Below, piece by piece: positions 5,396-63,711 of a stretch of DNA of 64,000 nt. Source of the DNA: Eledone cirrhosa (lineage: Eukaryota); NCBI GenBank assembly GCA_964016885.1, contig OZ024746.1, positions 30,132,001 through 30,196,000 of the forward strand. The letters are read 5' to 3'. The translations under genes and the position numbers were made by a program. Below the pieces are notes generated by a model that had not been told where the DNA came from, ran no database searches, and saw only the letters and a program-made list of their open reading frames with translations. Each line of letters starts with the position of its first letter. Position 1 is the stretch's first letter.

Positions 5396-5569
5396 GGCAG
5401 TATCGGTAGAGAGTCGGACGCCATGCTTTCCAGCATAGTTACGTCCCTTTACGGTCTGAGTTCAAATCCCGTCGAGGTTAACTTTGCCTTTAATCCTTAC
5501 GGGGTCGATAAAATAAAGTACCAGTAATGTACTGGGTAATTGCTGGCCTTGTGCCTAAAGTAGAAACAA
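5396..5569 (+). mobile_element. tRNA-derived SINE, family A
   Basis: ggcagtatcggtagag (A-box-like), gagttcaaatccc (B box), gcctttaatccttacggggtcgataaaataaagtaccag core, gtagaaacaa tail. More than 12 copies in the window. Confidence 0.9.
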
Positions 5570-8394
5570 ATATTTACAGGTAACGTTCTCTCTTGAGCTC
5601 CCCCTCCTTCTGATCTAATGAAAGCAACAAGTCTAAGCAATACTTGATTTGCTGGAAATGGTAACTGAAAACTGTCAATAGCCTCACCCAAATAAATTTA
5701 CAAAATTCCGTTTCAGATGAATTATTCAGCAGAGGAATAGTATTTTAAAGGAAAGAAGAAGAAAAATAGAGAGGCAGAAAATGTAAAGAAACACTAAAGT
5801 ATTTTAAAATAATTTTCCTGCAATAAACTATATTTCAGCTTATTTTCTGCCTGCATGATGACTTCGATTTCTCTATTAATTGAAGTAATTTACTCATTAT
5901 ATCAGATTTAACTATTTTCAGTAGAGTTATTAAAATATCTTTTATACCTGCTCACGTTTCTGTAAGCTGTTTCTCCATTCCAGCGTGCCTTTTCTCCAGG
6001 GAATGACTACCTAACAAAATTGCTGTTTTAGTAGAATTTAAATTTCATATAATGTTTAATGGCAGATCCATAGAAATATCAAATATTAGCAACGCATTTA
6101 TTAAAATATTCATAAACCATAATGATATGGTATTTATTTTTCAACATATGCATCCTTACGCTAAACATACACACACAAATACACACGCTTGTAATTATAT
6201 GTATGTGTGTGAATGCATATGCACACATACAAATCACTCATTCTTGCAAATATGCATAAGTGCATGTGTACACAGACCCACTAAAACATTCTCGCAAATA
6301 TGTATGGGTCTATATGTGTACAAAACACACACACAAATGCACACGCTCGCAATTAAATACGAGTGTATATACACATACACTCATATTTATGTGTGCGTAT
6401 GTATGAGGAAATGGATGTTAGCTGTATTTACGTAATATTTTAATTCTTCATTTCATTTCAAAACATGTAAAAGTGTCTGTATATTTGTCTACGTATGTGT
6501 ATGCTTATATATACATATGTGAGTGAGTATGTGCGTGCGTGTGATCGTCTGTATATGTGGGATATTCAACTGTTTCTTTGAAATCCATAAAATGTTTTCA
6601 CCACTATGAATTAAGTAGTAAATGTGTCTGACGAGCTGTGAACTCGTTTCGATATTCGATGAATTACCAACCAAAGAAGTTCGTTCGTTTAGAAATAGCA
6701 GCTTCATTTTCCTAAAATCCCTCCCTATTATTTTATCAAGGAAGGACACATTATTGTATTGCTGATTGGAAATACCTGAACATTTATAAGTTTGTTTAAT
6801 CAAGCCAGAGCTGAGTCTGCATAAGTAAAATCAGCTACACTAGTGGATATATCACCTAAGTAACCTTCGGGAAAGGCATGAACGTTATAACTTCAATTTT
6901 ACTGATTCCACTACAAATATGAAGAGATTATGTCAAATTAACATGAAACTATAATAGATATTGTTAAGATACAAATAAGGACTGTGGTTCCTGGTGTAAA
7001 CTAACATTTGGTAGTGGTATTAAACTGGGCGACGGAGTGAGTCTAAACCCCAGATAAGACATAGTGGTTTTGAAATCTGAAAGTAAATATTCTTTAGAGA
7101 TCGATAAATTAAATAGCTGACTGAAATACCTATAGTGTTTCATATGATCCAAAATAAACAATTTCAAATCAATTTATGTATTTATCCATTTATGCAATTT
7201 TGGTTGAATTTTGTATGTTTCTGCAGAGTTATTTGTCTGTAAACATAGAATAGCTGAACGGTTAAGACGTTTGACTCACCATTAAAAATAAAAAAAAATA
7301 ATAAAAAAAAGTAGAAACAATTATTATGTCCCGCATTCGATCTTACTCTGGAGCATTTTAGGCAAAGCTGGTTGATCCATTTCTTGTGGGTGACGTCACG
7401 TACACAGAATATGGACTGCACCTGCAATCCAAAGAGCCAGTCATGTGACAAACTGTCACGCTAAATCTCCCTGAGAATTACCTTAAGGATACGCGTGTGT
7501 GTAAGAATTTACATCCAGTTCGTGTTCATTTCACGTGGAGGATGTAGCATTTCTCGAATAGGGGGAACACGCACCGTCAAAACTGACGGAGGTCCATTCA
7601 GTTTAAATTCCTGTATCAATTTAATAGATAACTGTGTAAATTGCCGACATAATCCTAATACTATATTTGGCAAATAGGAATATCCAATTCGTTCATACTA
7701 CTAAAGTTGTGGAGAGCTCAATTTTCTGTGGACTGATAGCGATGAATAGAGTCGTTGACAACTACTGCAAGTGATGGCGAAGCTCTAGTAAGATCGTTCA
7801 CAATTTTTCATGTCCACGGAAAAAATGTTTAAAACAATACATGTTAGCCAGAGAAACGACAAGCAGATACCTTACCTAGAAGTAGGCACGTGAAAAATAT
7901 ACGCTGTGTTCTAGCATTACTTAATTGTTCATGAATGTAATATTAAAACCAAACCATCTACCTGTGAGTTCCACACATTCAGTTAGCGACCACAGTACTC
8001 AGTAATGAATATATTTATACGTTTATACAATTTTCGTTAAATCCTGTTGAATTTTTGTACATATATGAATTTATCCTATATATATGATGCCTATTGCATA
8101 TTATATTATAAAATTGAATCAGTTATTATCATAGACATGAATATTATGCAAATCGGAATATCCAATTTATGGATACTATCTAATCTGATGAGCTTTCTCT
8201 ATAGCAGTGTAAACAATTTCTGAGAATGACTACAACTGGAGTTGAAATTTTAGTCATATCGTTTGCTGCTTTTCAATCCACTAAAATATACATCAATTTG
8301 GTACATGTTTACATCAGGCAGATTATATATCTCCAGTTACACAACTCTCGTTATGTCTTGTACTGCTTCTGTAATTTATTTATATAATATATAT

Positions 8395-13842: not shown

Positions 13843-14048
13843 CCATAATATTAATTATAATTATAATAAGAAACCTAGCATAAACTCTAAAACTAACAGA
13901 AGAAATAGAACTAGAAACATAATCTGGTATGCTCTCCATTTTCACTAAGTATTAAAACACCTTTAGCTAAACTATTTTTAAAGCTCTTGAAAAATGTTTT
14001 CCCAAGGCCCATAGATATTATTCAATTAAACTATCTTACTCTACTACT

Positions 14049-14555
14049 ATGAACCTAGCACATAATATAAATAGTATCAATAATAGAAATCTAAACCTTA
14101 ACCAGAATACCACTAATACCTCTAGCAATATCCAATATAATAAATGTAATTGTAGAATTAAATCTAACTGTCCTTTAAAAAATAACTGTTTAGTTAAAAA
14201 TGTGGTCTATAAATGCAATGTCAAAACGAATGATAATATTTTTAACTATGTTGGCTCAACTTCTACAGACTTTAAATCTCGTTTCAATAACCATAAATGC
14301 TCGTTTAATAATATTGGTAAAAAATCTTCAACTTCTCTATTCAACTTGATATGGAACTTAAAATCCAAAAATAGAGACTATTCTTTATCTTGGAATATAA
14401 TCGCAGTAGCACCTGCTTACGATAACACAGCTTTATCCAAATTTTGCAATTTGTGTGTTAAAGAAATTTTCTTCATACTTAAATGTAAGAACTCCATTAA
14501 TTTACGTAACAATTTATTTAGCTCTTGTAAACATCGCCAAAACTCAACTTTTTGA
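14049..14555 (+). pseudogene. GIY-YIG endonuclease domain of a Penelope-like element (C-terminal remnant)
   Basis: CNCRIKSNCPLKNNC linker, VVY...YVGST..FKSRFNNHKCSF, CNLCVKE, SCKH. Upstream ORF is disrupted and RT is absent. Confidence 0.9.
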
Positions 14556-16255: not shown

Positions 16256-16792
16256 ATATTTATTAAAATAACAGATTAAAGTTTAACCAAAGAATCGCTG
16301 CTTTCACCCTTAACGGGATCTTCTGAAACTAACAAAGTCAATCTGTAAACGCAGAAGTGGATATTTCAAAAAACGTTGCAACCAGAGGAAGACAGGAAGA
16401 CGATACTTTGGTTCGTGGAAACGTTCCCTGGCAAAGAACGGGAAAAAACGAATATAATACGTCATTAATAGGAGCGGTGAAAAACAATTACACGCAAAGA
16501 CAGAACCACGTTTATGGTATAAAAGAAGTCGTAGACTAATGTTCTCTTAGGTGGTTCATAGAGACGTTCTCTGGCAATGAACGGAAAAACGTTTTTTGAA
16601 ATATCCGCTTCTGCGTTTACAGATTGACTTTGTTAGTTTCAGAAGATCCCGTTAAGGGTGAAAGCAGCGATTATTTGCTTAAACTTTAATCTGTTATTTT
16701 AATAAATATTTGCTCTACGGTTCTTATATATTTGATATATATTTATCCTTATCGAACCCTCTTTGGATTTTAGTCTTCAAATTTATTATTAT

Positions 16793-17087: not shown

Positions 17088-18716
17088 GTATTCATAATGG
17101 AATATTTCATTATGTTGGTATGGTGTGAAAAGCTCAATGAACGTTTGCAATAAGTAGGGATTCAAAACAATCGAAAGAGTCTTCCAAAGATTAAAAACTT
17201 TGTTCTTAAATACAGTGAGCGCAACGGAGCCTACATGTTTAAGATGAAGAAAACCAATGTTTTAAAATCAAAATCATCCTTAACCTCTACAATCGTTTCT
17301 GTAGAGGAGAAACATTCGTTCATATAGTATATACTGTAAAATCACTTGTAAGTCACCAGGAGTACTGAGAATGATTAATTCAACACAACAGGTATGAAGA
17401 AAATTAGGAAATTATGAATATAGGCAAGAAATGAGAGAAAATAGATGAAACAGATGCAAGAGAGAGTAGCAATTACAGTGAAGTAGTATTTTTTAGGCTT
17501 ATGAGGCAATAAACGGTGAGTTTTTTCGTGCAAGCGCTGGATAAACAATGGTACAATAGTAATATGTTGTAACATACGGTGAGAGAAACAGACAGTTTAA
17601 AACCTGTAATATTAATAAAATAGCTTTTGTATTAATAGATGTTCATTATTGTTTTCAAATCATGTTACTCGGTTGTAACAAAATGTCAGAAGCATAGGCA
17701 AAATTATCTAACAGCGTGCACAATTAAAATGGCGAGCGAAAAATTCAAAACTAAAAAGATATTACGCCTTCGAGGCGGTGTATTTAAGCGTAAAACAAAC
17801 GGTTTAATTTGTGTCTGATGTTACAGTGTGATTAAGTATAAAATACTTTACTTCATGATCAAGAACCTCGTGTAATAGACGGTGTTCCTTTAGGAAGTGA
17901 CTGGTTGAACTCGTACTCTGAATGACTACAAATGAATTTTCACATAGATAGAGGATAAATATTACACTTACATTTATGAATACTGGGTTCACAGTGTAGT
18001 CAAAATAATTACATCAAAATATATCAACCGTAATTCATTATTGTATCTAAATATGTATACATTTAAAGGTGAAGAAGTTTAAAGGACTAATAGGTATATA
18101 CAACAATTATAGGTTGAGTATGCTAGAAAGGAAAAAAGGTAGATTGTTTAAAAAGTGTAAATAACTAGCAACACGTTTATCACACTCGTATTGTGATAAC
18201 TATAGAAACGTAATTTGATTATTATTCAATTGCGGTTTACCTATTAAATGTTTAGTTAAATTATTATCTTTATATATACATATATATTATATAGATAAAC
18301 ACACACACACACACGCGCACGCACACACACACACATATATGTTTATATATATATATGTATCTATATATATATACATACTTACACACACACATACACACAC
18401 TGTATATATATATATAAATATACACGGGTGTGTATAATTGTGTATAGAAGATTATATTAATAAAAGGAATTCCAACTTTGTCTGATTTACTCGTTTTATT
18501 TACAATCCTTTAAAATTATAATGATATTATAATGAAATAGCATGGTAGAATATTAAATCTTAAATGTTAATTGAACAAGTACTTTCATGCTTACGCAATC
18601 TTCAGGTTCATATTCAGTGGTGACAGTCAAGTTTGCAATTTTCGAAAATTGTAAATAAAACGAGTAAATCAGACACAGTTGGAATACCTTTTATTAATAT
18701 ATATATATATATATAT

Positions 18717-23699: not shown

Positions 23700-23835
23700 G
23701 GATTCTATGATGATTTCCTTCAAATGAAACAGTTCTAGTTTGTAGAAGCCATTTCTATATTAAATTTGTTGTATACATTTTACTAACGTATTGAGTACCT
23801 TACTTACTGTGGTTACCCCCTAATTTTAACCCGGA
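23700..23835 (+). mobile_element. Diverged copy of the 53.9-54.1 kb HHR cassette
   Basis: atgatgatttc..atgaaacagttctag..tgtagaa plus the shared tail gtattgagtaccttacttactgtggttacc. Confidence 0.7.
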
Positions 23836-24976: not shown

Positions 24977-25160
24977 TGGCAGTATCGGTAGAGGGTCTGA
25001 CGCCATGCTTTGCAGCAAAGAGTTACGGCCCTTTATGGTCTGAATTCAAATCCCGCCGAGGTTAACGTTGCCTTTCATCCTTACGGGGTCGATAAAATAA
25101 AGTACCAGTAATGCACTTGGATAATTGCTGGCCTTGTGCCAAAAGTAGAAACAATTATTA
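24977..25160 (+). mobile_element. SINE family A
   Basis: Near-identical to the 5396-5569 and 39159-39346 copies. Confidence 0.9.
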
Positions 25161-25646
25161 TGTAAAAATATATTTTTGATATAGAGCTCCTCGCCACATG
25201 TTTATTATTAGATCATTCGCACACACGCACACATTGTTGTTCACTTTCTCACAGTTAAACATATACACTCTCAGTCTCACTCTTTCATACACACATGCAC
25301 ACTCTCGCCCACACACACACACACACTTTCTCTTTCTCTCTTACACACTCGCTCTCAAAATTCTTGTTTGAAATAGTTTTAGTAATAATTCTAAGTTACT
25401 TTTTAATATCGGACATTTTTCGTTTAATATATATGTATTGATTAGCTTTGCTATATTGTTAGGTCAATTAACTACCTTCCAGTCTAAAGGAAGAGTTAAG
25501 GAATATCTCATATTTCTTGCTATTCTTACCATATTCCTGCTTCTATTAGTTATTCCAACAGCGTGAAATTAACTCCCAGAATCTGTCCACTTCATTTCCA
25601 CTTCAGGTCATTCCGATTACTATTACTATTATCATCATTGTTATTA

Positions 25647-27694: not shown

Positions 27695-27863
27695 TAGAGG
27701 GTCGGACGCCATGCTTCGACGTATAGAGTTACGGCCCTTGTCATTCTGAGTTCAAATCCCGCCGAGGTTAACTTTGCCTTTCATCCTTACGGGGTCAATA
27801 AAATAAAGTACCAGTAATACACCGGGATAATTGCTGGCCTTGTGCCAAAAGTAGAAACAATTA
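27695..27863 (+). mobile_element. SINE family A (5'-truncated)
   Basis: B box, core and tail conserved. Confidence 0.9.
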
Positions 27864-27948
27864 TATTATATTGTACTATATATACTATATTATACTGTAC
27901 TATACTGTACTATACAGTACTATACTATATTATACTGTACTATACTGT

Positions 27949-30516: not shown

Positions 30517-30835
30517 GTTCAAATCTCGCCGAGGTTAACTTTGCTTTTCATCCTTACGGGGTCGATAAAATAAAGTACCAGTAATGTACTGGGTAATTGA
30601 TGGCCTTGTGCCAAAAGTAGAAACAAGTATTATATGTTCAAGTGGAACTCCTCATATCACTTACCACGGCAATGACCACCTCCATCGACTAGAGCAAACA
30701 ATATCAATAATTGTTTCTACTTTAGGCACAAGGCCAGCAATTACCCAATGCATTACTGGTACTTTATTCTATCGACCCCGGAAGGATGAAACGCAAAGTT
30801 AACCTCGGCGGAATTTGAACTCAGATCATACAGGG
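30517..30835. mobile_element. Two partial SINE A copies tail-to-tail (+ 30517-30627; - 30709-30835)
   Basis: SINE core and tail on opposite strands. Confidence 0.85.
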
Positions 30836-33228: not shown

Positions 33229-33604
33229 AGGTGGATTGGCAGTATCGGTAGAGGGTCGGACGCCATGCTTTCCAGCATAGTTACGTCCCTTTACGATCTG
33301 AGTTCAAATCCCGCCGAGGTTGACTTTGCCTTTCATCCTTACGGGGGTCGATAAAATAAAGTACCAGTAATGCACTGGGTAATTGCTGGCCTTGTGCCTA
33401 AAGTAGAAACAATTATGGTAGTGGATTGGCAGTATCGGTAGATGGTCGGACACCATGCTTTTCAGCATAGTTACGTCCCTTTACGATATGAGTTCAAATC
33501 CCACCGAGGTTAACTTTGCCTTTCATCCTTACGGGGTCGATAAAATAAAGTACCAGTAATGTACTGGGTAATTGCTGACCTTGTGCCAAAAGTAGAAACA
33601 ATTA
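33229..33604 (+). mobile_element. Two tandem near-full-length SINE A copies
   Basis: gtggattggcagtatcgg...gtagaaacaatta occurs twice. Confidence 0.92.
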
Positions 33605-34228
33605 TGATCCTTACAATAGATTATGTGATATTATGTGATATGAAGTTGATGTGGTGATGCTTGCAAACATTGGTGGATTACTATGGTCTGAGTATGGTGT
33701 TTGCGGTGGGTCCCATGAATCAGAGTACCTGCCTCTATACTGATGTTCACATTTCTTCTGGGGATGTCTGCAAAGATTGATGGAGCAAAACACATTGCCT
33801 AATATATAGCAGAATACATGTCTTAATCCATGTGTTAATATTTGCACACAATACTGTACACCAGGAAACAAGTGTGCATAAGACCCACACCTCTGTCACA
33901 ATGACAGGATCCCCACTTCCATCACCATGGCAATACCAGCCCTCCATCACCTTGGCAGTTCCCTACTTCTATCCCCATGGTATGACATTCCACTCCATCT
34001 CCATGGCAAGACACCCACCTCCAACACCATAATAAGATCCTACCCTCACTTCCACCGACATGGCAAAACCTCCATCTCCACCACCACTCCTCCACTACAA
34101 TGGTAATACCTCACCGCTGTTACTACGCCAACGACCCTCACATCGGCCTCCACGATTTCAATGTAGACCGCAGCATGTAAACCAAAATATGCGGGAATCA
34201 GAGATATATATTGATATAGACCAAATAT

Positions 34229-34418
34229 AATTGTTTCTACTTTAGGCACAAGGCCAGCAATTTACCCAATGCATTACTGGTACTTTATTTTATCGACCCC
34301 GTAAGGATGAAAGGCAAAGTAAACCTCGGCTTGATTTGAACTCAGACCGTAAAGGGACGTAACTATGCTGGAAAGCATGGCGTCCGACAATCTACCGATA
34401 CTGCCAATCCACCACCGC
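34229..34418 (-). mobile_element. SINE family A
   Basis: Reverse complement of the consensus. Confidence 0.9.
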
Positions 34419-34960: not shown

Positions 34961-36267
34961 CCATATATATATATGTATATATATACACAAGTATAAGTAT
35001 ATATATATATATATATATACATACAAACAGACACACTCAGTCGAATATATATATACACACATGATATATATGTATACGTAATATATGACAAATACGAGAC
35101 TATAAAGGTTAACTCATACATTATTCATTTTAACAAAGGAAAATAAATAAGATAAAGACAAACTATGCCATCATTCTCAGCAATACACATTTAGAAAACC
35201 ACATCGAAATTTATTGTTTAATATACGCTAAAAAATGTTTCTTTGATTATAATTCCTTTAGATATTTCGTTCTGTTAGTCTTTGATTATTTTGTGTTATG
35301 CCAACAGAACTCTTCCTTGAATATCTTGTGTTTACGTCTGAAATAAAAAAAAAACAGTGATGGATTCACCAGAACGTTTTAACAGATGACGCCGACAGCT
35401 TCTCTCTGGAGAGGCTTTAATTGCTCGCTAATATTTTCTTCATTATTTTTTTATTGAAAAACAAATAAATCGATTTCGGTAGCTTTTTTTTTATTAATTT
35501 TTTTCTTTTTCATATGACAGAAAGTTATCGGGAAAATATCTGAATTCATACTCTTCATTGTTTTGTTTCCAATTCATAGCTTGAAGAAAAATGTCATTAA
35601 GATGAATAAAAGAGGAACACAAAACAATTGATAGTTTACTGTGTATTCTAAATTAGAAAAAGAAAACTATTCTCTGTGGTCGTAAACTTCTAAACTGTTT
35701 CAGATTTGTCACATTATGTTATATTATAAATAGGTGGAAGTTCGTTGCAGCAGACAAAAGACTTTGCGATATTTACCTTTACATTAAATCCCGTTGAGAT
35801 CAACTTTGCCTTTTATCCGTGTGTGGGGTAAATTAAATAATATACTAGAAATATACAGTGTATGAATTAATCGACACTTATCATAAGTCTGCTAGACAAG
35901 ATCTGGCCTGGGACTAAATCAAAACTACTTTTAGTTGATACAACCATAAGAACACGGCCTGGAGCAGACCTTTCTAAATCGCGACAGCGTTTAGTTAAAG
36001 GATTTCTTTGTATAATTATTTTAGATTGTTGTATTTTTCAACACGTTTATTATTAAGTTTTAAATTTCTGGCTATATTTTAATTGTACAATCGCAATGTT
36101 TTATTTTGCAAAAAAAAAAAAAGATTATTATAATCAGTAAATAATGATTCTAAAGTTAGAATCTTGATATTTAATAAATTTCCTATTGCCCTGATGATTC
36201 CCACTCTGGAAAGATCTAAATAATCCACCCAACATGATGGGGAAGACAAGCAAGGGTAAACAACTTC

Positions 36268-36470
36268 TGCAAACAAGCCTCAATTTTATAGCCATGTCAG
36301 TAGAATGAACCCTTCATGCTTGCTCTTGTGTTCTGTTCACATGCCAACACAAGAGCAAGAATGAAGGGTTCATTCTACTGACATGGCAATAAAATTGAGG
36401 CTTGTTTGCATAATTGCAAACGAATCGAATGTTATTATTAATATTCGAAAAATTCAGATTACATTTATTA
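36268..36470. mobile_element. Fold-back cassette (arms 36268-36332 / 36346-36410), homologous to 62360-62567
   Basis: Shared cattcta.tgacatggc and gtttgcataattgcaaacgaatcgaat motifs. Ends at (TA)n. Confidence 0.78.
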
Positions 36471-36656
36471 TATATATATATACAATTCCACCAGCTGAGT
36501 GTCACAAGCAACACAATATTGATGGTTACAGACCAGCAAAGTAGTCTAGATATAGTCACTTTACCTACTAGAAATAGCAGCCAAATACCCTTCAAATAAC
36601 ACTATAATGAATATTGAAATTTGAATATATAGTTTCCACAATGTTGATAACTATAA

Positions 36657-37063
36657 TAATTGCTTCTACTTTTGGCACAAGGCCAGCAATTATACCAGTG
36701 TATTACTGGTACTTTATTTTATCGACCCCGTAAGGATGAAAGGCAAAGTTAACCTCAGACCGTCTATAATAATTGTTTCTACTTTAGGCACAAGGCCAGC
36801 AATTACTCAGTGCATTACTGGTACTTTATTTTATCGACCCCATAAGGATGAAAGGCAAAGTTAACCTCGGCGGGATTTGAACTCAGACTGTAAAGGGACG
36901 CAACTATGCTAGAAAGCATGGCGTCCGACCCTCTACCGATACTGCCACTATAATAATTGTTTCTACTTTAGGCACAAGGCCAGCAATTACCCAGTGCATT
37001 ACTGGTACTTTATTTTATCGACCCCGTAAGGATGAAAGGTAAAGTCAACCTCGGCGGGATTTG
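36657..37063 (-). mobile_element. Three tandem SINE A copies (two 5'-truncated)
   Basis: Three repeats of aattg[ct]ttctacttt[ta]ggcacaaggccagcaatta, each preceded by ctataat. Confidence 0.9.
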
Positions 37064-37329
37064 ACTATAATAATAGTTGGAAATTAGAGAAAATAGTTGA
37101 ATAAATTGGGTAAATCGGAAGGGGGGGGGGGTGACTAAGACAGCAGGCATCAGTCTCCACTTTTTTCCGATACCAGGAATACTTTATTTATTGAACTATT
37201 TTCTGCATGGTGGCAACTATATTTTTTAATTAGTTTAACCAATATAGTGTACATTTGTTTCTTGTTAGTACATTTGTTTCTTGAAGACTTGATGGCATCA
37301 TAGCAAATATTTCTATATCAGCATATAAA

Positions 37330-39158: not shown

Positions 39159-39346
39159 GGGCGGTGGATTGGCAGTATCGGTAGAGGATCGGACGCCATG
39201 CTTTCCAGCATAGTTACGTCCCTTTACGATCTGAGTTCAAATCCCGCCGAGGTTGACTTTGCCTTTCATCCTTACGGGGTCGATAAAATAAAGTACCAGT
39301 AATGCACTGGGTAATTGCTGGCCTTGTGCCTAAAGTAGAAACAATT
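39159..39346 (+). mobile_element. Full-length SINE A with target-site duplication
   Basis: attattatatcatgactca occurs on both sides. Confidence 0.93.
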
Positions 39347-40873
39347 ATTATATCATGACTCATACACTGTTCATTTTCCTGACATTTGTACATTATTCTA
39401 TGTACTATACATGCACCTTTGGTGAGTTGTAGTGCACCTGAGCACTGTACACAATAATTTCATTATTAAATCCGTAGTACTCAAGCCTGGAGAGGGATGC
39501 GCTCCGACAGGCCATGAACCGCCGTATGTCAATACGGCACCCATACGACTCCATCAGGAGTTACGTGTTTATACTGTACCATATATATATATGTGTGTGT
39601 GCGTGTGTGTGTATGCGTGTGCGTGTGCGTGTGCGTGTGCGTGTGTGAGTGTGCGTGTGTGTGTTTTCTTCCTTGAATTCTCGTACATTTTGGAATTATT
39701 TACGAAAACTTGTCTATACGTTTTACTTATTTCTCTCTAAAAGTGTCCTTTTATCTGAAATTCAATTCAACATTACTTCCATTTCTTCGTCTCTTCCCTG
39801 TCTTTGCGGTTTCTATCTATCAAATATCCTTGACACGGCATCGGTTAAACCGAGTATATGGTAAATAACACTTTATCAAAAATCCATTCCGGAAGCACAT
39901 TGTTACGAAGCGATCCCCATACACCCATTGGCGCTTCTAATTGTAGCTCTTTCATATATAGAGTGGAGGAGTAGGTATTTCCTATATACGATGTAAGTGG
40001 AAGTGTGCTCTATAAACAAACACAAATAATGGATTGAATAGAATGGTCTGCCGTCGCTTTCAACAATGAATGTACTAGTTGTACACTCATCAGAATATCC
40101 TGCTCATCAAATTCAAGCGCAAATAGTTGATCTTTCAACAAACATCTGTACCTATAACGTAATTCTCAGGGAGACTCAGAGTAACATAGTGTGTTACAAG
40201 TACACTCTACCGGACGGACTTCCACACAGTTTCACTACACCCAATGTATTGCACTGTGGTAAATGACACTTCTCAAGATGCCATGTAGTGGGTTCGAACC
40301 TGGGACCTAATGATTGTAAGTGAACTTCTTAATTGTCCGGTCATGTTACGCCCCACTAACGTTGAATATAACTCAATGTTTGTTATTGACGTTTTTAATA
40401 GTTTCTTTCCACACAACCATTCAACATCCACATTAAAAGACAAAGAAACAGCCGTCAAATTTTACACGCTACCTCCACTTGCAGCAGTGATTTATTCATG
40501 CTGACAGAGCCATTTACGAGAGTACTGTACTGCTTACTAGATCAGTGATCGTTCAATTGAAAACCTGTATTCAATAGCTTCTGTCCTTTCATTTTCTCCG
40601 GCTAACTTATTCCAGTTGGTATTTACTATAATGAAATGATTGTATATTAGTTTGAATATAAAGTTGTATTCTATTCTCTTGGCTGGCGTTCATAGCTTAT
40701 TAATCAATTTTTCCCATATCTATGGGATAAATATCTAATATAGGAATGGTTTGACAGTAAGAGGAATATCTATGAATTCAAATCAAGAAGGAACTGACAA
40801 AACTGTCAAAACTGACAAAGAAAATAGGTTGAAAGACATGCAAGTTCATAACGGCAGACGAAAATTGTCTATC

Positions 40874-45339: not shown

Positions 45340-45434
45340 CTGTATAAATGAAGTAATTCCGTCGGAAAAGTCCAGGAAAAAGGAGTGCTCTGTGTAGGTT
45401 ACAGAGCTTAATAGTTATATATATAATAAAATTA

Positions 45435-45536
45435 GTCCTTCATCAGTGATCTTCCAACTTTCATTGGTATTTCATCGCTTTAAAAATCATATACCTCTAG
45501 TTGGCGCGAGCAATAACAAATAAAGTTATTGGGACA
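45435..45536 (-). ncRNA. Permuted K-turn hammerhead-like motif (version 1)
   Basis: Minus strand: gtcc..tcgc g ccaact aGA ggtaT A tgatttt taaa gcga T GAAA tacc aatGAa agttgg aagatca CTGATGA A ggac. Confidence 0.7.
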
Positions 45537-46260
45537 AGTAAAATAGGGTGAAACGAGCGAGGCATGTAAACAAACACTGACGAAGGACTAATTTTATTCA
45601 TATGTAACCCATGTGCAACCACGCAGCGCTCCATTTTTCTCATATTTATATTTTTTCCTCGGCTGCGATTGTCTGTTTCTTTCTTACTCTCTCTCTCCTC
45701 TTTTTACCTCCTCTGCCAGTCACACTCTCTCTCTCTGCTGGTCTCTTCCTCACACTTCCACTCACTCACTCTCTCTGCTGGTCTCTTCCTCACACTTCCA
45801 CTCACTCACTCTCTTCTTCTCCCCCTCTCTCACTTCCTCCCGTTTCACCTGTGTGAAATCCTTTTCTCGCTCACATCTCACCCATGTCGGATGGTCTATA
45901 TCTCTCGCCCATGAATTCACCAATCTTAAGCTTACAGATTTCATGTGCTTGTCTCTTCCTATCTTTCCGTTGCCATACCATCTTTGTTTCTTCACATGTC
46001 TCGCTCGTTTCACCCTGCTAAGTCGTTGGGACACGTAAATAAAGGGGACACGAGAGTGTAAACAAACAAAGATGGTGAAGCAACGAAAAGTGAGGAAGAA
46101 GGAGTCAAGTCCAAAATGTTCATGAATATAATTTCGGTGAAATCGTGAACGAGAGACCGAATTTATATTCATGAAAATTTTGGACTTGACTCCTTCTTCC
46201 TCACTTTTCGTTGCTTCATCATATTTGTTTGTTTACACTCTTGTGTCCACTTTATTTACG

Positions 46261-46371
46261 TGTCCCAACGACTTTTTTTAGCCGTTGCTCGCACCAACCG
46301 GAGGTATATGGTCTTTAAAGCGATGAAATACCAATGATGGTTGGAAGATCACTGATGAAGGACTAACTTTA
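46261..46371 (+). ncRNA. Permuted K-turn hammerhead-like motif (version 1b)
   Basis: gtcc..tcgc a ccaacc gGA ggtaT A tggtctt taaa gcga T GAAA tacc aatGAt ggttgg aagatca CTGATGA A ggac. Confidence 0.72.
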
Positions 46372-46427
46372 TTCATATGTAACCCATTCGCAACCACGCA
46401 GCACGTTTATTCTCATATATATATATT

Positions 46428-49157: not shown

Positions 49158-50355
49158 ATTGAGGGTGGTGGTGGTGCTGCTGCTGCTGCTGCTGCTGCTG
49201 CGCTTGTCGTTGTTTCTGTTGGTTGTTGTGGTGGTGATGTTGGCGGTGGTTTTTTTCCTGTTGTTGTTATAACTGGTGCTGATGCTGATGCTGATGCTGA
49301 TGCTGATGCTGATGCTGATGCTGCTTGTGCTGCTGGTGCTGCTGCTGGCGGTGCTGCTGCTGGTGCTGGTGCTGTTTTTGTCGTAGTTTTTGTTGGTGGA
49401 GTTTTTATCGTTGTTGTTTTTGTTGTTGATGTGGTGGTGGTATTTGTGGTGGTGCTGTTGTTGGTCTTGTATTTGTTGCTGTTGTTGTTGATGGTGGTAT
49501 TTGTGGTGGTGCTGTTGTTGGTCTTGTATTTGTTGCTGTTGTTGTTGGTGGTGGTATTTGTGGTGGTGCTGTTGTTGGTCTTGTATTTGTTGTTTTTGTT
49601 GTTGATGTGGTGGTGGTATTTGTGGTGGTGCTGTTGTTGGTCTTGTATTTGTTGCTGTTGTTGTTGGTGGTGGTATTTGTGGTGGTGCTGTTGTTGGTCT
49701 TGTAGTTGTTGTTTTTGTTGTTGATGTGGTGGTGGTATTTGTGGTGGTGCTGTTGTTGGTCTTGTATTTGTTGCTGTTGTTGTTGGTGGTGGTATTTGTG
49801 GTGGTGCTGTTGTTGGTCTTGTATTTGTTGTTTTTGTTGTTGATGTGGTGGTGGTATTTGTGGTGGTGCTGTTGTTGGTCTTGTAGTTGTTGCTCTGTTG
49901 TTGTTGGTGGTGGTATTTGTGGTGGTGCTGTTGTTGGTCTTGTAGTTGTTGCTCTGTTGTTGTTGGCGGTGGTATTTGTGGTGGTGCTGTTGTTGGTCTT
50001 GTAGTTGTTGCTGTTGTTGTTGGTGGTGGTATTTGTGGTGGTGCTGTTGTTGGTCTTGTAGTTGTTGCTCTGTTGTTGTTGGTGGTGGTATTTGTGGTGG
50101 TGCTGTTGTTGGTCTTGTAGTTGTTGCTGTTGTTGTTGTTGGTGGTGGTATTTGTGGTGATGCTGTTGTTGGTCTTGTAGTTGTTGCTGTTGTTGTTGTT
50201 GGTGGTGGTATTTGTGGTGGTGCTGTTGTTGGTCTTGTAGTTGTTGTGTTGCTGTTGTTGTTGTTGGTGGTGGTATTTGTGGTGATGCTGTTGTTGGTCT
50301 TGTATTTGTTGGTGTTGTTGTTGTTGGTGGTGGTTGTGGTGGTGTTGGTGGTAGT
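48520..50355. repeat. GGT/GTT low-complexity tract grading into a ~55-65-bp minisatellite (49400-50350)
   Basis: Unit ggtggtatttgtggtggtgctgttgttggtcttgta[gt]ttgttg... Confidence 0.92.
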
Positions 50356-50471
50356 GGCATTGTACAGATTTTATGTAATCTTACTACACAAACAACTCAT
50401 ACAATGATATATATTTATAAACACCAGAGGATCACCCATGCGCATATGGACATATATACATATATACATAT

Positions 50472-50569
<98 letters not shown>

Positions 50570-50597
50570 GTATATATGTATACATATATATATATGT

Positions 50598-50641
<44 letters not shown>

Positions 50642-50675
50642 ACATATATACATATACATATATATATACATATAC

Positions 50676-50769
<94 letters not shown>

Positions 50770-51075
50770 ATGTATATATGTATATATGTCCATATGCGCA
50801 TGGGTGATCCTCTGGTGTTTATAAATATATATCATTATATGAGTTGTTTGTGTAGTAACATTACATAAAATCTGTACAAGGCCACTACCACCAACACCAC
50901 CACAACCAACAACAACAACAACAACAGCAACAACTACAAGACCAAAAACAGCATCACCACAAATACCACCACCAACAACAACAGCAACAACTACAAGACC
51001 AACAACAGCATCACCACAAATACCACCACCAACAACAACAACAGCAACAACTACAAGACCAACAACAGAACCACC

Positions 51076-52206: not shown

Positions 52207-52214
<8 letters not shown>

Positions 52215-52645
52215 TTCACATATTTATATTTTTTCCTCAGCTGCGATTGTCTGTTTCTTTCTTACTCTCTCTCCTCTTTTTACCCTCTCTGCCAGTCACA
52301 CTCTCTCTCTCTGCTGGTCTCTTCCTCACACTTCCACTCACTCACTCTCTTCTTGTCGGATGGTCTGTATCTCTCGCCCATGAATTCACCAAGCTTAAGC
52401 TTACAGATTTCATGTGCTTGTCTCTTCCTATCTTTCCGTTGCCATACCATCGTTGTTTATTTACATGTCTCGCTCGTTTCACCCTATTTTACTTGTCCCA
52501 ATAACTTTATTTGTTATTGCCCGCACCAACTAGAGGTATATGATTTTTAAAGCGATGAAATACCAATGAAAGTTGGAAGATCACTGATGAAGAACTAATT
52601 TTATTCATATGTAACCCATGTGCAACCACGCAGCGCTCCATTTTT

Positions 52646-52650
<5 letters not shown>
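52207..52650 (+). mobile_element. One full ~429-bp monomer of the permuted-HHR element
   Basis: Starts and ends with ctccattttt (52207, 52636). The same junction is read through at ~45630-45660. Flanked by (CT)n and (TA)n. Confidence 0.8.
52494..52596 (+). ncRNA. Permuted K-turn hammerhead-like motif (version 1), predicted cut after 52540
   Basis: ggtaTA 52535-52540, GAAA 52557-52560, CTGATGA 52584-52590. Confidence 0.7.
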
Positions 52651-52686
<36 letters not shown>

Positions 52687-53834: not shown

Positions 53835-53890
<56 letters not shown>

Positions 53891-53947
53891 TTAATATAGA
53901 TGAGATTCTACAGGACTAGAACTGTTTCATTCTTTAGAAATCATCAG

Positions 53948-54000
53948 GAGATTCCTGATGATTTCTAAAGAATGAAACAGTTCTAGTCCTGTAGAATCTC
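53948..54000 (+). ncRNA. Type I hammerhead within a fold-back (53887-54015)
   Basis: gagattc CTGATGA t ttc taaa gaa t GAAA cag ttctagtc ctg TA gaatctc. Stem I is 7 bp, cleavage triplet GUA. Confidence 0.85.
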
Positions 54001-54300: not shown

Positions 54301-55338
54301 TTCTCAGAAGCTTTTGTCAATAACATTTTCAGTATTGAGAAATACACAGGTATGATAACTATTTATTATCGGTCGATAAAATAAAGTACCAGTAATGTAC
54401 TGGGATAAGTGCTGGCCTTGTGCCAAAAAGTAGAAACAATTATCATAGGCATTGGCCCAAATAGTATCGCGTATTTTCTGTCCTAAATTCAATGGGATGT
54501 AATTGACATGTTGGAGATACCAGATATCTAACTAAACTAAAAGTATGATCGTTCTTCACTTTGAAACATGACTTGTTGTTTCGGTTCGCGATCGTAAGGT
54601 TCGTGCTTTTGATTATCAACGCTGCATTGCGTCCTTGAGTAAGACACTTTATTTCGCGTTCATTCAGTTCATACAACTGGATAAAAACGAGTTCTACCTG
54701 TAATTCAAAGGGCTAACCCTACCATTCACATTTGAATCTGTGAATCCCGCAGAGAAATAACTTTAATGAACACCTGTCTAATTAATGCTCTGCTACTTAC
54801 ACGTGAATTTCGAAAGCAATCATCGTACACCTACTTACCTACTTGCAACAAAATTTCTGGTCGGATGTCCCAAACAATCGATACATTCAACATAGCTAAT
54901 TATTGCATTTCCGTCTAGTGGCAAATAAAAGATTTATTGAAACAGGTAATACTACTAAGCTAATTATATAACAACAAATACTCAACATTTACATCAGTAA
55001 CGAATTCAGAGACGGAGATACGATGCTAATTAAGTTTGAAAACACAACTCATTAAGCAAAGTTGATTAAAAATATATAAAGCGAAAGATGTACTAATTAC
55101 ACGCCTTAGTGGATATTTGAGTGGAGTACTTAAATACTGAATTAGTTGCTTAAATGTAACTCATAATTTCATGCATTACTGGATAATAAATTATTCATAA
55201 ACCCGGCATATTCAAACAAATTCATGTAGAGTTGTGTGTGTGCATGTATGTACATATATGTACACACACACACACATATATATATATATGTGTATATATA
55301 TATATATATATACACACACACATATATATATATATATA

Positions 55339-55995
55339 TATGAAAATATGGCTGAGAAGAATACTGCTGGTTGCACATGGATAACATGTTATAAAATGAG
55401 TCCCTCATCAGTGATTTACCAAACGATCATGGGTATTTCATCGCATTAAAAATCATATACCTCACGTTGGAGCGATAATAACTAAAATAAGTTATTAGGA
55501 CAATAGAAACGCGTAAAGCGAGTGAGACAAGTAAACAACACAGGGGGAAGCTAACCGAAGATGGAAATAAACACAAGCAACATAGTTATTCTTTCAGCAT
55601 AAGCTGTGTGAATATATGAGCGAGTCAGAAAATAGACCTTTCGCTAGTGAATCCGGTGTTAGAAAGAAAGAAAACCGTTTTCTCAGCGAACGGGAGGAAG
55701 AAAGAAGGGGAGAAACAGGGACTGAGTGAGTGGGAGTGCGAGGAAGAGGTCAGTAGAGAGAAAGAGTTAACTGACATGGCAGAGGGGACGAAAGAAAGTA
55801 AGAGAAACAGAGAGAACGAGGGAGCAGTAAGAGAGAAAGAGAGAAACACAGAATTGAAGTTTGGGTAAATATATGAAAATATGGGTGAGAAGAATACTGC
55901 TGGTTGCACATGGATAACATGTTATAAAATGAGTCCCTCATCAGTGATTTACCAAACGATCATGGGTATTTCATCGCATTAAAAATCATATACCT
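55339..55995 (-). mobile_element. 533-bp monomer plus ~125-bp terminal redundancy, permuted-HHR element (version 2)
   Basis: 55341-55462 is repeated at 55874-55995. Non-coding, with (TA)n on both sides. Confidence 0.82.
55399..55502 (-). ncRNA. Permuted K-turn hammerhead-like motif (version 2), partial second copy at 55932-55995
   Basis: gtcc..atcgc t ccaacg tGA ggtaT A tgattt ttaat gcga T GAAA tacc catGAt cgtttgg t aaatca CTGATGA G ggac. Confidence 0.7.
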
Positions 55996-60529: not shown

Positions 60530-60634
60530 GTATATAAACCGATTTATATATATATATATATATATGAATGAAGAATGGTGGGCTGCGTTGTTGCGAACAT
60601 GAACATATGAATAAAAATAGACCAAGAGATAAAA

Positions 60635-60738
60635 TGTCCTCATCAGTAGTCTGCTGATTATCGTTGGTATTTCGACGCATTAAAGACTAGATACCTAAAA
60701 TCAGTGCGAGCGAATAACTCAATTAAGTTATTGGGACA
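60635..60738 (-). ncRNA. Permuted hammerhead-like motif (version 3, AUC site, G-C at 10.1-11.1)
   Basis: tgtc..tcgc a ctgatt tTA ggtaT C tagtct ttaat gcgt C GAAA tacc aacGAt aatcag c agacta CTGATGA G gaca. Confidence 0.72.
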
Positions 60739-60869
60739 GTGGGAAAACAGAGGGAAGGAAACAAACACATGGTAGTATGCAACGTAAAGAGAGGAAAATA
60801 GAGACAAGTCAATGAATCCTCGTGGCTTAAGTCCGACAAATCAAATTGACGAGTAAATTATAGACACGA

Positions 60870-61937: not shown

Positions 61938-62540
61938 AAATGTTAGACGATGCAGACAGAACAAATGTGTCCAATATTCAGCGATCTGTTACCTCTATAT
62001 TCTTATCTCTCTCCTGCTAATTGTCTCGTATAATTTGACGATTACGCTCCGTTCTGTCATTCTTCCCTGGGCAATCTATAATCTATTTAGCGTCGTTACT
62101 AGCTCTTTGTTCGATCATTCGCAGTTAATATTCTTGAAATACCGAAACCTCGAATTTCATTTGATATCTGTGATATCCTTGGATATCCATATTTACCACG
62201 GCTAGCTGAAGATCGGAAATTCTTTGTTCCGTCTGTATCATCCAATATCTGATTTACAGAATCTTTCGACTCTGCTCAGTATTTCCTCTTAACTAACTTT
62301 CATATGAATTTACATATAAATGTAATAAAAACAGATTTTCGCTCTACATGGCTGAATACAATAAATGTAATCTGAGTTTTTCAATATTAAAAATAGTATT
62401 CGATTCATTTGCAATTATGCAAACAGCCTCTTTTTTAAAGCCATGTCAGTAGAATGAGCCCCTCATTCTTGCTCTTACTCTTGTGTCATTCTAGTGACAT
62501 GGCTTGGCCGTTTGCATAATTGCAAACGAATCGAATATTA

Positions 62541-62563
62541 TTTTTAATATTTGAAAAACTAAG

Positions 62564-62649
<86 letters not shown>

Positions 62650-62930: not shown

Positions 62931-62984
62931 TCCATACGCACACATATATATGTACGTATGGATTCACCGAACATTTATTATAAT

Positions 62985-63170
62985 TGTTTCTACTTTTGGC
63001 ACAAGGCCAGCAATTACCCAGTACATTACTGGTACTTTATTTTATCGACCCTCTAAGGATGAAAGGCAAAGTTAACCTCGGCGGGATTTGAACTCAGATC
63101 GTAAAGTGACGTAACTCTTTGCGTCAAAGCATGGCGTCCGACCCTCTACCGATACTGCCAATCCACCGCC
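62985..63170 (-). mobile_element. Full-length SINE A with 13-bp TSD, inserted in an HHR cassette
   Basis: catttattataat at 62972 and 63171. The empty site is present in the tandem copy at 63609. Confidence 0.93.
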
Positions 63171-63711
63171 CATTTATTATAATGCTCGGTGTGTTGTAAA
63201 CAAACATCCCGAATTAAGCCGTACAGTGTCTAGCAACCATCGTTGCTCATTTGTTCAACACTGACAAAGGAATGCTGTACTAGTTTCAATCTTATTAGCT
63301 ATCGTCAGCAACGTATACCATCCTGCCAGATGGTTGAACGTCTGAAAGTATATACTTTCCTTATGCATATTAACGGCTAAGCAGCCTAATTTGCATATCG
63401 AGTGAGTTAATCGGCCGGGGTACTGACAACGATAAACGGAAAAAATGAAACGAAATTTCATTTCTCACTCTTAGTACGGCTGTTACTTAAATATAAGTAA
63501 GTATACATACATATATGTATACAGACGTACAGTAGTATGTATATATATATATATATATATATATACATACATGCACACATATATATATGTACGTATGGAT
63601 TCACCGAACATTTATTATAATGCTCGGTGTGTTTGTAAACAAACATCCCGTATTAAGCCGTACAGTGTCTAGTAACCATCGTTGCTCATTTGTTCAACAC
63701 TGACAAAGGAA

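Follow-up and report, generated by a model that had tools for sequence, protein, structure and literature searches.

A candidate type-SGC-like hammerhead, opened within its CUGAnGA block, in retrozyme-like elements of Eledone cirrhosa and at some Naiad 3' ends

The 64,000-nt stretch of Eledone cirrhosa DNA analysed here (the window) contains six copies of a motif in which the three conserved strands of a hammerhead ribozyme follow one another with the UH block first, the GAAA block second and the CUGAUGA block last. The original prediction had located all six and read their order correctly: GAAA-YRYY-N14..26-CUGAYGA matches six times in the window, where 0.01 matches would be expected, and none of 100 shuffles gave six or more. 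By analogy with the hammerhead core, the scissile nucleotides (H17) are predicted at 45490(-), 46308(+), 52540(+), 55456(-), 55989(-) and 60690(-); cleavage after H17, originally placed by the same analogy, stands as a prediction.

The ribozyme predicted for the focal copy, which belongs to subfamily A, spans 46262..46363 on the plus strand and would be built as Y5'-P0-IIa-X'-III'-UH-Ia-linker-IIb-GAAA-IIIb-linker-Xb-Ib-CUGAUGA-10.1-Y3'. The hairpin P0, which separates the core from the 5' strand of stem II, occupies 46266..46287 (46266-72 with 46281-87) and precedes the upstream 5' strand of stem II (IIa, positions 10.2-10.5, 46289..46292, partner 46320-46323) and the upstream strand of helix X, the helix between stems I and II (X', 46294..46299). 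The block around the site (46303..46315) holds a stem III strand (46303-07, with U16.1 at 46307), H17 (A46308) and a stem I strand (46309-15). In the GAAA block (46320..46332) the stem II 3' strand (46320-24) is followed by G12-A13-A14-A15.1 (46325-28) and a stem III strand running to 46332. The CUGAUGA block (46345..46359) is shortened, with the stem I 3' strand at 46345-51, CUGAUGA at 46352-58 and A10.1 at 46359, opposite U46324. Finally, the 3' strand of helix Y (46360..46363), the weakest of the helices, may pair with 46262-65 and thereby close the domain. All these features lie on the plus strand.

This ribozyme lies in a 5'-truncated element copy (46156..46421, plus strand) that is 94% identical to a subfamily A unit and ends in (TA)n, 113 nt 3' of the predicted site. 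An inverted 5' piece of the same element, of the Penelope type, precedes it on the minus strand (46020..46156), giving a fold-back at 46020-46274. The ribozyme with H17 at 45490 covers 45435..45535(-), within an element piece at 45418-45573. That with H17 at 52540 (52495..52595, plus strand; element piece 52213-52664) is partly decayed, with a mismatch in stem II and another in Y. The subfamily B ribozyme at 55400..55501(-), with H17 at 55456, is the 3' copy of a 533-nt direct tandem, and subfamily C is represented at 60635..60738(-) by a copy with an AUC site (H17 60690; element piece 60560-60868). The copy at 55932-55994 had been called partial; it is present, and it is where a tandem insertion of 1.2 units (55331-55988) starts, truncated at the 5' end, the ribozyme portion (55933..55994, minus strand, H17 55989) beginning at the site block directly after (TA)n and lacking the upstream strands IIa and X' as well as P0.

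The order is, as originally argued, a non-circular permutation of the hammerhead and pseudoknotted. It is not, however, the new topology it had been put forward as. Eckert et al. 2023 (PMC10085705) break the hammerhead down into three blocks, S with the site, G with GAAA and C with CUGAnGA; their published type SGC has this very order, cleaves in vitro and was rescued in four helices. All SGC examples in that work are metatranscriptomic (soil), and the authors report having found none in known organisms' genomes; they assumed that CUGAnGA with its adjacent stem strands is uninterruptible (PMC10085705). The expectation that searches with nested descriptors miss the fold is borne out: Rfam gives no hammerhead match at E<=10 for 46230-46410 and none at gathering score for 10 related loci, type I-III matches being expected to be absent because the order is permuted. 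Over the whole window, Rfam returns solely repeat-driven miRNA-like matches among the 150 listed of 385.

We searched the 3.0 Gb of the Eledone cirrhosa genome with several patterns. One made of the S and G blocks only matches 6,396 times (control 0), a second, non-overlapping one 5,057 times (control 63) and a third, overlapping the others, 2,282 times (control 24), where matches are not to be equated with exact copy numbers. A DNA similarity search of the same genome with 46255-46385, by a method that skips very common words, returned no match. Patterns with other stem III letters found 140 and 99 matches (controls 42 and 13), which were set aside as mostly mutated copies and chance. Seven matches in a metagenome scan have the helices in no case and were put down to chance. 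Loci L044, L209 and L210 (~1450-1560) hold a distinct small family in which GAAA likewise precedes CUGAUGA but the flanks are not the same.

Scanning the fetched loci and the window by core and stems I and III yielded 144 distinct instances in 49 clusters, counts that retain a few chance matches and many 5'-truncated copies. H17, described in the window as A or C and never G, is A in 96 and C in 39 of these instances but also U in 8 and G in 1. Stem III, likewise described as invariant, is so within the window and not genome-wide, where its changes are compensated.

Although the original model had the order and the pseudoknot right, it left stem II at a single base pair and missed the upstream strands of stem II and of the I-II helix. 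Stem II forms between the strand before GAAA and one lying 12-30 nt upstream of the cleavage site, and the latter is directly followed by one strand of helix X, which joins stems I and II. To quantify pairing we used 20 copies from different clusters, picked for intact 5' flanks and aligned with MAFFT on sequence only. Across these rows pairing in helices II (upstream), X, III and I amounts to 88.4%, two-sided change occurs in 19 of 24 pairs, and the covariation score is 0.561, compared with 0.243 for shuffles and at most 0.131 in slid registers; note that the rows are related and hand-picked and that the structure was derived from them, so that the controls overstate significance and shuffle counts are not probabilities. 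Stem I, whose listed variants had been given correctly, is 95.5% paired with two-sided changes at all 6 of its pairs, stem III 97% (3 of 5 pairs), helix X 83.5% (6 of 7) and upstream stem II 79.8% (4 of 6), the last being short (4-6 bp) and imperfect in several copies. U16.1-A15.1 is kept in 20/20 rows, core letters having been part of the search patterns.

A contiguous, downstream stem II fares very differently, being 40.4% paired with zero two-sided changes in the alignment. Across the 20 copies, the stem II 3' strand binds the upstream window at a mean of -6.4 kcal/mol (shuffled -4.3; partner-swap p=0.0004) versus -1.3 kcal/mol for the downstream window (p=0.88). For helix X the partner swap gives p=0.00005 upstream and 0.73 downstream, which led us to reject a helix X partner downstream of CUGAUGA. 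This contrast between upstream and downstream partners is, at the level of sequence, stronger evidence than the shuffle controls. Among all 144 instances, 96 can form an upstream stem II and a helix X of at least 4 bp each, compared with 25.9±3.8 after shuffling the upstream region, while a contiguous stem II of at least 3 bp is possible in 12, subfamily C included. Position 11.1 has a possible partner in 128 of the 144 (R10.1-Y11.1, closing stem II), and none of the 144 follows the published SGC rule that places the stem II strand directly after CUGAnGA(U)G.

The two outer helices are less uniform. P0 is 93% paired in one superfamily, with two-sided changes at 4 of 7 pairs, and 86% paired in the other. 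Helix Y, formed by the far 5' strand and the bases after CUGAnGA, has a swap p of 0.056 and is 67% paired in families E/F. For the focal copy ViennaRNA, which cannot represent the two pseudoknotted stems, predicts P0, X and III at probabilities of at least 0.93 (0.95-1.0 for the six scored pairs of P0) and does not predict helix Y.

Taken as a circle, the predicted structure is an SGC ribozyme with the rest of the element attached elsewhere. Where the circle opens differs slightly between families. In families A-D/I, those resembling the window copies, the base after A9 is able to pair with 11.1 in 15 of 15 distinct rows, in agreement with the original claim that the base after CUGAUGA pairs with the base before GAAA (U-G in 8 rows, U-A in 5, C-G in 2), and the break therefore falls after 10.1 (10.1/10.2). 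In families E/F, 11.1 is a C whose partner in 14 of 14 rows is a G upstream, and the nucleotide following A9 takes part in helix Y as U-A or A-U and cannot pair with C11.1; here, then, the break falls between A9 and 10.1.

The resemblance to type SGC is otherwise close. HRIMA-1 and the SGC variants share with the Eledone fold the S-G-C order, the double pseudoknot, the core, a short stem I-II linker and a I-II helix that immediately precedes the 3' strand of stem I, and the helix spacing is that of published SGC ribozymes that cleave. In type SGC, however, the stem II 5' strand and the I-II strand come directly after CUGAnGA(U), whereas in Eledone they stand at the 5' end, together with P0; this upstream completion differs from all rows compared in the available part of the published SGC alignment. 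Published patterns also demand G10.1-C11.1, whereas the window families have U11.1 with A or G, so that A-U and G-U occur in Eledone as well. The linker between stems I and II (46314-46319 and equivalents) is UUA/UUAA-like in most families, as it is in the portion of the SGC-variant alignment at hand, which may be the mark of a shared tertiary contact.

Would a hammerhead tolerate being opened here? As far as the accessible text of two reports goes (PMC3705267, PMC4209133), the A9/G10.1 junction accepts one extra base in natural hammerheads, and HRIMA-1 has an extra base at the same place (PMC10085705). By analogy, we infer that the junction could tolerate a strand break. Note, though, that the CChMVd plus strand, the Penelope minimal hammerheads (both according to partial sources) and HRIMA-1 have a single bulged base at A9/10.1, whereas Eledone has a strand break with a whole element attached; a one-base bulge is a far smaller change, and we found no precedent for a real break beside A9 with a multi-helix junction. 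On sequence evidence, a split C block, in a block that published descriptors hold to be uninterruptible, appears to be new.

The fold is seen outside Eledone at the 3' ends of Naiads, elements that, according to the available part of Craig et al. 2021 (PMC8557442), have (TA)n as their insertion target and are without canonical hammerheads, some being flagged 'HHR_half_core'. We read the last 260-330 nt of 53 of 54 Naiad consensus sequences by eye, with no alignment or tool score. Judged in this way the fold fits seven of the 53 ends, two of them carrying the 'HHR_half_core' flag, with stem II completed upstream in all seven and the fold placed ~60-130 nt before the 3' end. Naiad_Obim and Naiad_Ovul (octopus) have a stem II of 6 bp, X of 5, III of 5 and I of 6; Naiad_Amil and Naiad_Anas (Acropora) have II 6, X 10, III 12, I 6 and Y 6, and Naiad_Aacu (Acropora) shows the same fold with a few mismatches. 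In Naiad_Esco, from the squid Euprymna, 4 of 5 pairs of stem II form alongside X 7, III 7 and I 6, and Naiad_Bfor, from the ctenophore Beroe, is a weaker case (II 6, X 15, III 7 and just 2 bp in I). Within the octopus pair and within the coral trio the sequences are near-identical, which leaves four lineages: octopus, squid, Acropora and Beroe ends, unrelated in sequence, keep all the helices as judged by eye. In the visible 260-330 nt of the other 46 ends the fold was not seen. Several nematode Naiads have CUGAnGA before GAAA, and a different conserved, non-hammerhead motif recurs at the 3' ends of many Naiads from bivalves and hemichordates.

The Eledone elements themselves form same-family direct tandems: 21 units of 445-804 nt, one chimeric stretch excluded, have one hammerhead each. 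Many pairs are divergent rather than in direct tandem. The ribozyme strand of the units is pyrimidine-rich, no recurring ORF was seen among open frames of at least 150 aa, and distant subfamilies align mainly at the ribozyme-bearing unit ends. Some subfamilies are young, neighbouring units being up to 96% identical. (TA)4 or longer lies within 200 nt downstream in 100 of 143 copies, mostly at 60-150 nt and never less than 30 nt from the site; upstream it is present in 28 of 144, against a window background of 28%. Together with 5' truncation, partial tandems, an inverted 5' copy and microsatellite targets, all traits of Penelope-type insertion, these sequence features describe what we take to be a retrozyme-like layout with a Penelope-type insertion pattern, a context that the original prediction had not recognised. 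Folded as circles, four units give MFE z-scores of -1.1, -0.1, -0.1 and -2.5 (15 shuffles each), little or no better than shuffles.

We then asked which element might supply the machinery. The genome contains ~10,600 GIY-YIG candidates, and in none of 50 GIY-YIG loci (30 taken from 150 scored matches, together with 20 regions with long frames) is the ribozyme the tail of a coding element. SGC copies occur in three of 20 ten-kb regions around long Penelope ORFs, none as an ORF tail; two copies downstream of Penelope endonuclease ORFs were considered as their tails and rejected, (TA)-rich DNA separating them. Apart from one inserted copy, the units have no counterpart in the 3' regions of 14 ORFs of this kind. 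Near-intact elements encoding RT plus a C-terminal GIY-YIG (938 aa) likewise end in (TA)n. As to Naiads, no Naiad ORF (N-terminal GIY-YIG plus RT) was found upstream of a ribozyme in the fetched Eledone loci, the octopus Naiad motif is absent from the Eledone genome at two mismatches, and upstream of 14 decayed Naiad-ribozyme look-alikes there is no trace of a coding region. Since cephalopod Naiads are described as long inactive in the part of Craig et al. 2021 available (PMC8557442) and some of the subfamilies are young, the present helper may belong to another Penelope clade. A 194-aa frame at 13971-14552 on the plus strand of the window looks by eye like a Penelope-like C-terminal endonuclease, with no Pfam match at E<=0.001.

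Animal non-LTR retrozymes, which carry type I hammerheads, are the nearest comparison (PMC7229834; bioRxiv 10.64898/2026.07.22.740005; both as partially available). From these sources, retrozymes and Eledone elements share non-coding tandem units with one hammerhead each, low GC and thousands of copies, and both are proposed parasites of Penelope-like elements. They differ in that retrozymes are type I, whereas Eledone has the S-G-C order in pyrimidine-rich units of 445-804 nt, and in that retrozyme circles are highly self-paired, whereas Eledone unit circles are not strongly so. With Naiads, as far as their published description was accessible, the Eledone elements have in common (TA)n targets, partial tandems and inverted 5'-truncated copies, but Naiads encode an N-terminal GIY-YIG endonuclease and RT and the Eledone elements encode nothing.

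The explanation we favour, and consider probable on sequence grounds, is that the motif is a functional type-SGC-like hammerhead, its circle opened within the CUGAnGA block, which resides in retrozyme-like elements and in some Naiads and is predicted to cleave. Helices X and III would form one long hairpin whose loop consists of UH, the stem I strand, the linker, the stem II strand and GAAA; this loop would pair backwards with the upstream strand (stem II) and forwards with the downstream strand (stem I), the resulting double pseudoknot rebuilding a normal hammerhead core. The rest of the element, with P0, would be attached at A9/10.1 in families E and F and the Naiad examples, and one base later in families A-D and I. 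The hosts would be non-coding retrozyme-like parasites of Penelope-like elements, plus some autonomous Naiads.

From the sequences, the covarying helices, the copy number and the insertion pattern we infer the following life cycle. Tandem copies would be transcribed, cut after H17 to unit-length RNA and possibly circularised. A Penelope-type RT-endonuclease, primed at (TA)n, would then start 60-150 nt 3' of the site and cross the intact junction: intact junctions and fixed 3' ends suggest that reverse transcription begins 3' of the ribozyme and passes the site. It is most likely, by analogy with known hammerheads, that the fold cleaves after H17 and so cuts tandem transcripts to unit length; both AUA and AUC sites cleave in a viroid hammerhead, according to a source available in part. 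Intact junctions would be explained by a ligated circle and also by uncleaved tandem RNA. They do not prove circles, since in an Anolis Penelope-like element, going by the accessible part of the in vitro study, the hammerhead needs protein and is dispensable for insertion, with uncleaved tandem RNA as the main substrate.

The same Anolis work lends something to a reading that we regard as unlikely, namely that the fold is real but non-catalytic or protein-dependent and serves as a recognition or positioning structure for a Penelope-type RT, which would copy uncleaved tandem transcripts from just 3' of it. All mapped 3' ends do lie beyond an intact site, the unit circles are not unusually self-paired, and for the protein-dependent Anolis Poseidon hammerhead, unneeded for insertion, the portion of the study at hand has no RNA reads ending at the site. 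Against this, every letter of the catalytic core is kept in unrelated sequences of three phyla, with H not G. For the Eledone copies this argument is circular, the core having been part of the search patterns, but the Acropora, Euprymna and Beroe ends were found without a core pattern.

If the motif were instead an ordinary contiguous SGC hammerhead with a one-bp stem II, as the original model had it, the upstream helices would be accessory or an inhibitory switch. Such a ribozyme is compatible with the base after A9 being able to pair with 11.1 in every row of families A-D/I, with the 12 of 144 instances in which a contiguous stem II of at least 3 bp is possible, and with a downstream alternative for helix X in subfamily A. 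Yet we think it improbable: in E/F it is the upstream G, in all 14 rows, that pairs with C11.1, the base after A9 being unable to; covariation is seen with the upstream partner and not with the downstream one; and published SGC-3 needed both stem II and the I-II helix (PMC10085705). More improbable still is a canonical hammerhead to which consecutive tandem units contribute blocks, or which forms in trans, with the apparent permutation arising from the repeat itself. Penelope and satellite hammerheads are often dimeric, as the partial sources at hand have it, and many copies are arranged in tandem, but S-G-C is opposite to the cyclic order C-G-S, such that canonical order needs three units and two ~600-nt loops. 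Moreover, all partners lie within ~100 nt of one copy and covary there, the Naiad consensus ends have a single copy, and stem III is long rather than a short palindrome.

Returning to the split SGC-like hammerhead, a wider reading, to which we give somewhat more credence than not, is that it represents an ancient, active animal-retroelement ribozyme with a fourth hammerhead opening (at A9/10.1, on a non-circularly permuted scaffold), common to Naiads of ctenophores, corals and cephalopods and to tens of thousands of retrozyme-like parasites; on that reading it has escaped notice because all descriptors expect stem II after CUGAnGA. The block order is known, whereas novelty seems to lie in the break in block C, in the animal host and in the link to Naiads: SGC hammerheads in genomes, a split C block and the fold in Naiads are unreported in the literature searched, a coverage that leaves out most subscription journals and bioRxiv supplements, and the available portions of Forgia 2023 and of a 2026 virus-ribozyme paper do not describe this form. 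If true, our interpretation would overturn both the statement, in the sole paper known to us on non-circularly permuted hammerheads, that there are no SGC hammerheads in known genomes and the view that the CUGAnGA block is unsplittable, would reveal a natural attachment site beside the catalytic core that is useful for ribozyme design and search descriptors, and would supply the missing ribozyme of part of the Naiad clade, connecting animal genomes with the SGC fold that viroid-like RNAs from the environment carry. It offers a testable answer to why the very abundant Naiads 'lack' hammerheads; it also suggests that entire high-copy families are overlooked in censuses of ribozymes in animal genomes.

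Other hammerheads and repeats were seen along the way. An ordinary type I hammerhead family (CUGAUGA, GAAA, UH) is present at 53890-53990 and 23708-23835 of the window and at loci L093, L096, L100 and L109, the copy at 53947 forming a fold-back pair. At loci L094, L095 and L106, the 3' region of a coding Penelope-type family contains, ~380 nt after the ORF, a minimal type I hammerhead whose loop III is palindromic, of the dimer-forming kind. Long fold-back palindromes of varied repeats lie at 356-769, 16256-16709, 18453-18701, 30517-30820, 36265-36413, 50248-50991 and 62361-62574, an abundance to be expected should insertion of the Penelope type, leaving inverted 5' copies, be common here. Another repeat in the window, 180 nt long, young and interspersed, looks SINE-like by eye and is often tandem or inverted; its ~14 copies are 86-99% identical and lie, among other places, at 5396-5574, 24977-25161, 27695-27864, 33230-33608, 34226-34416, 36650-37064, 39159-39352 and 62976-63171.
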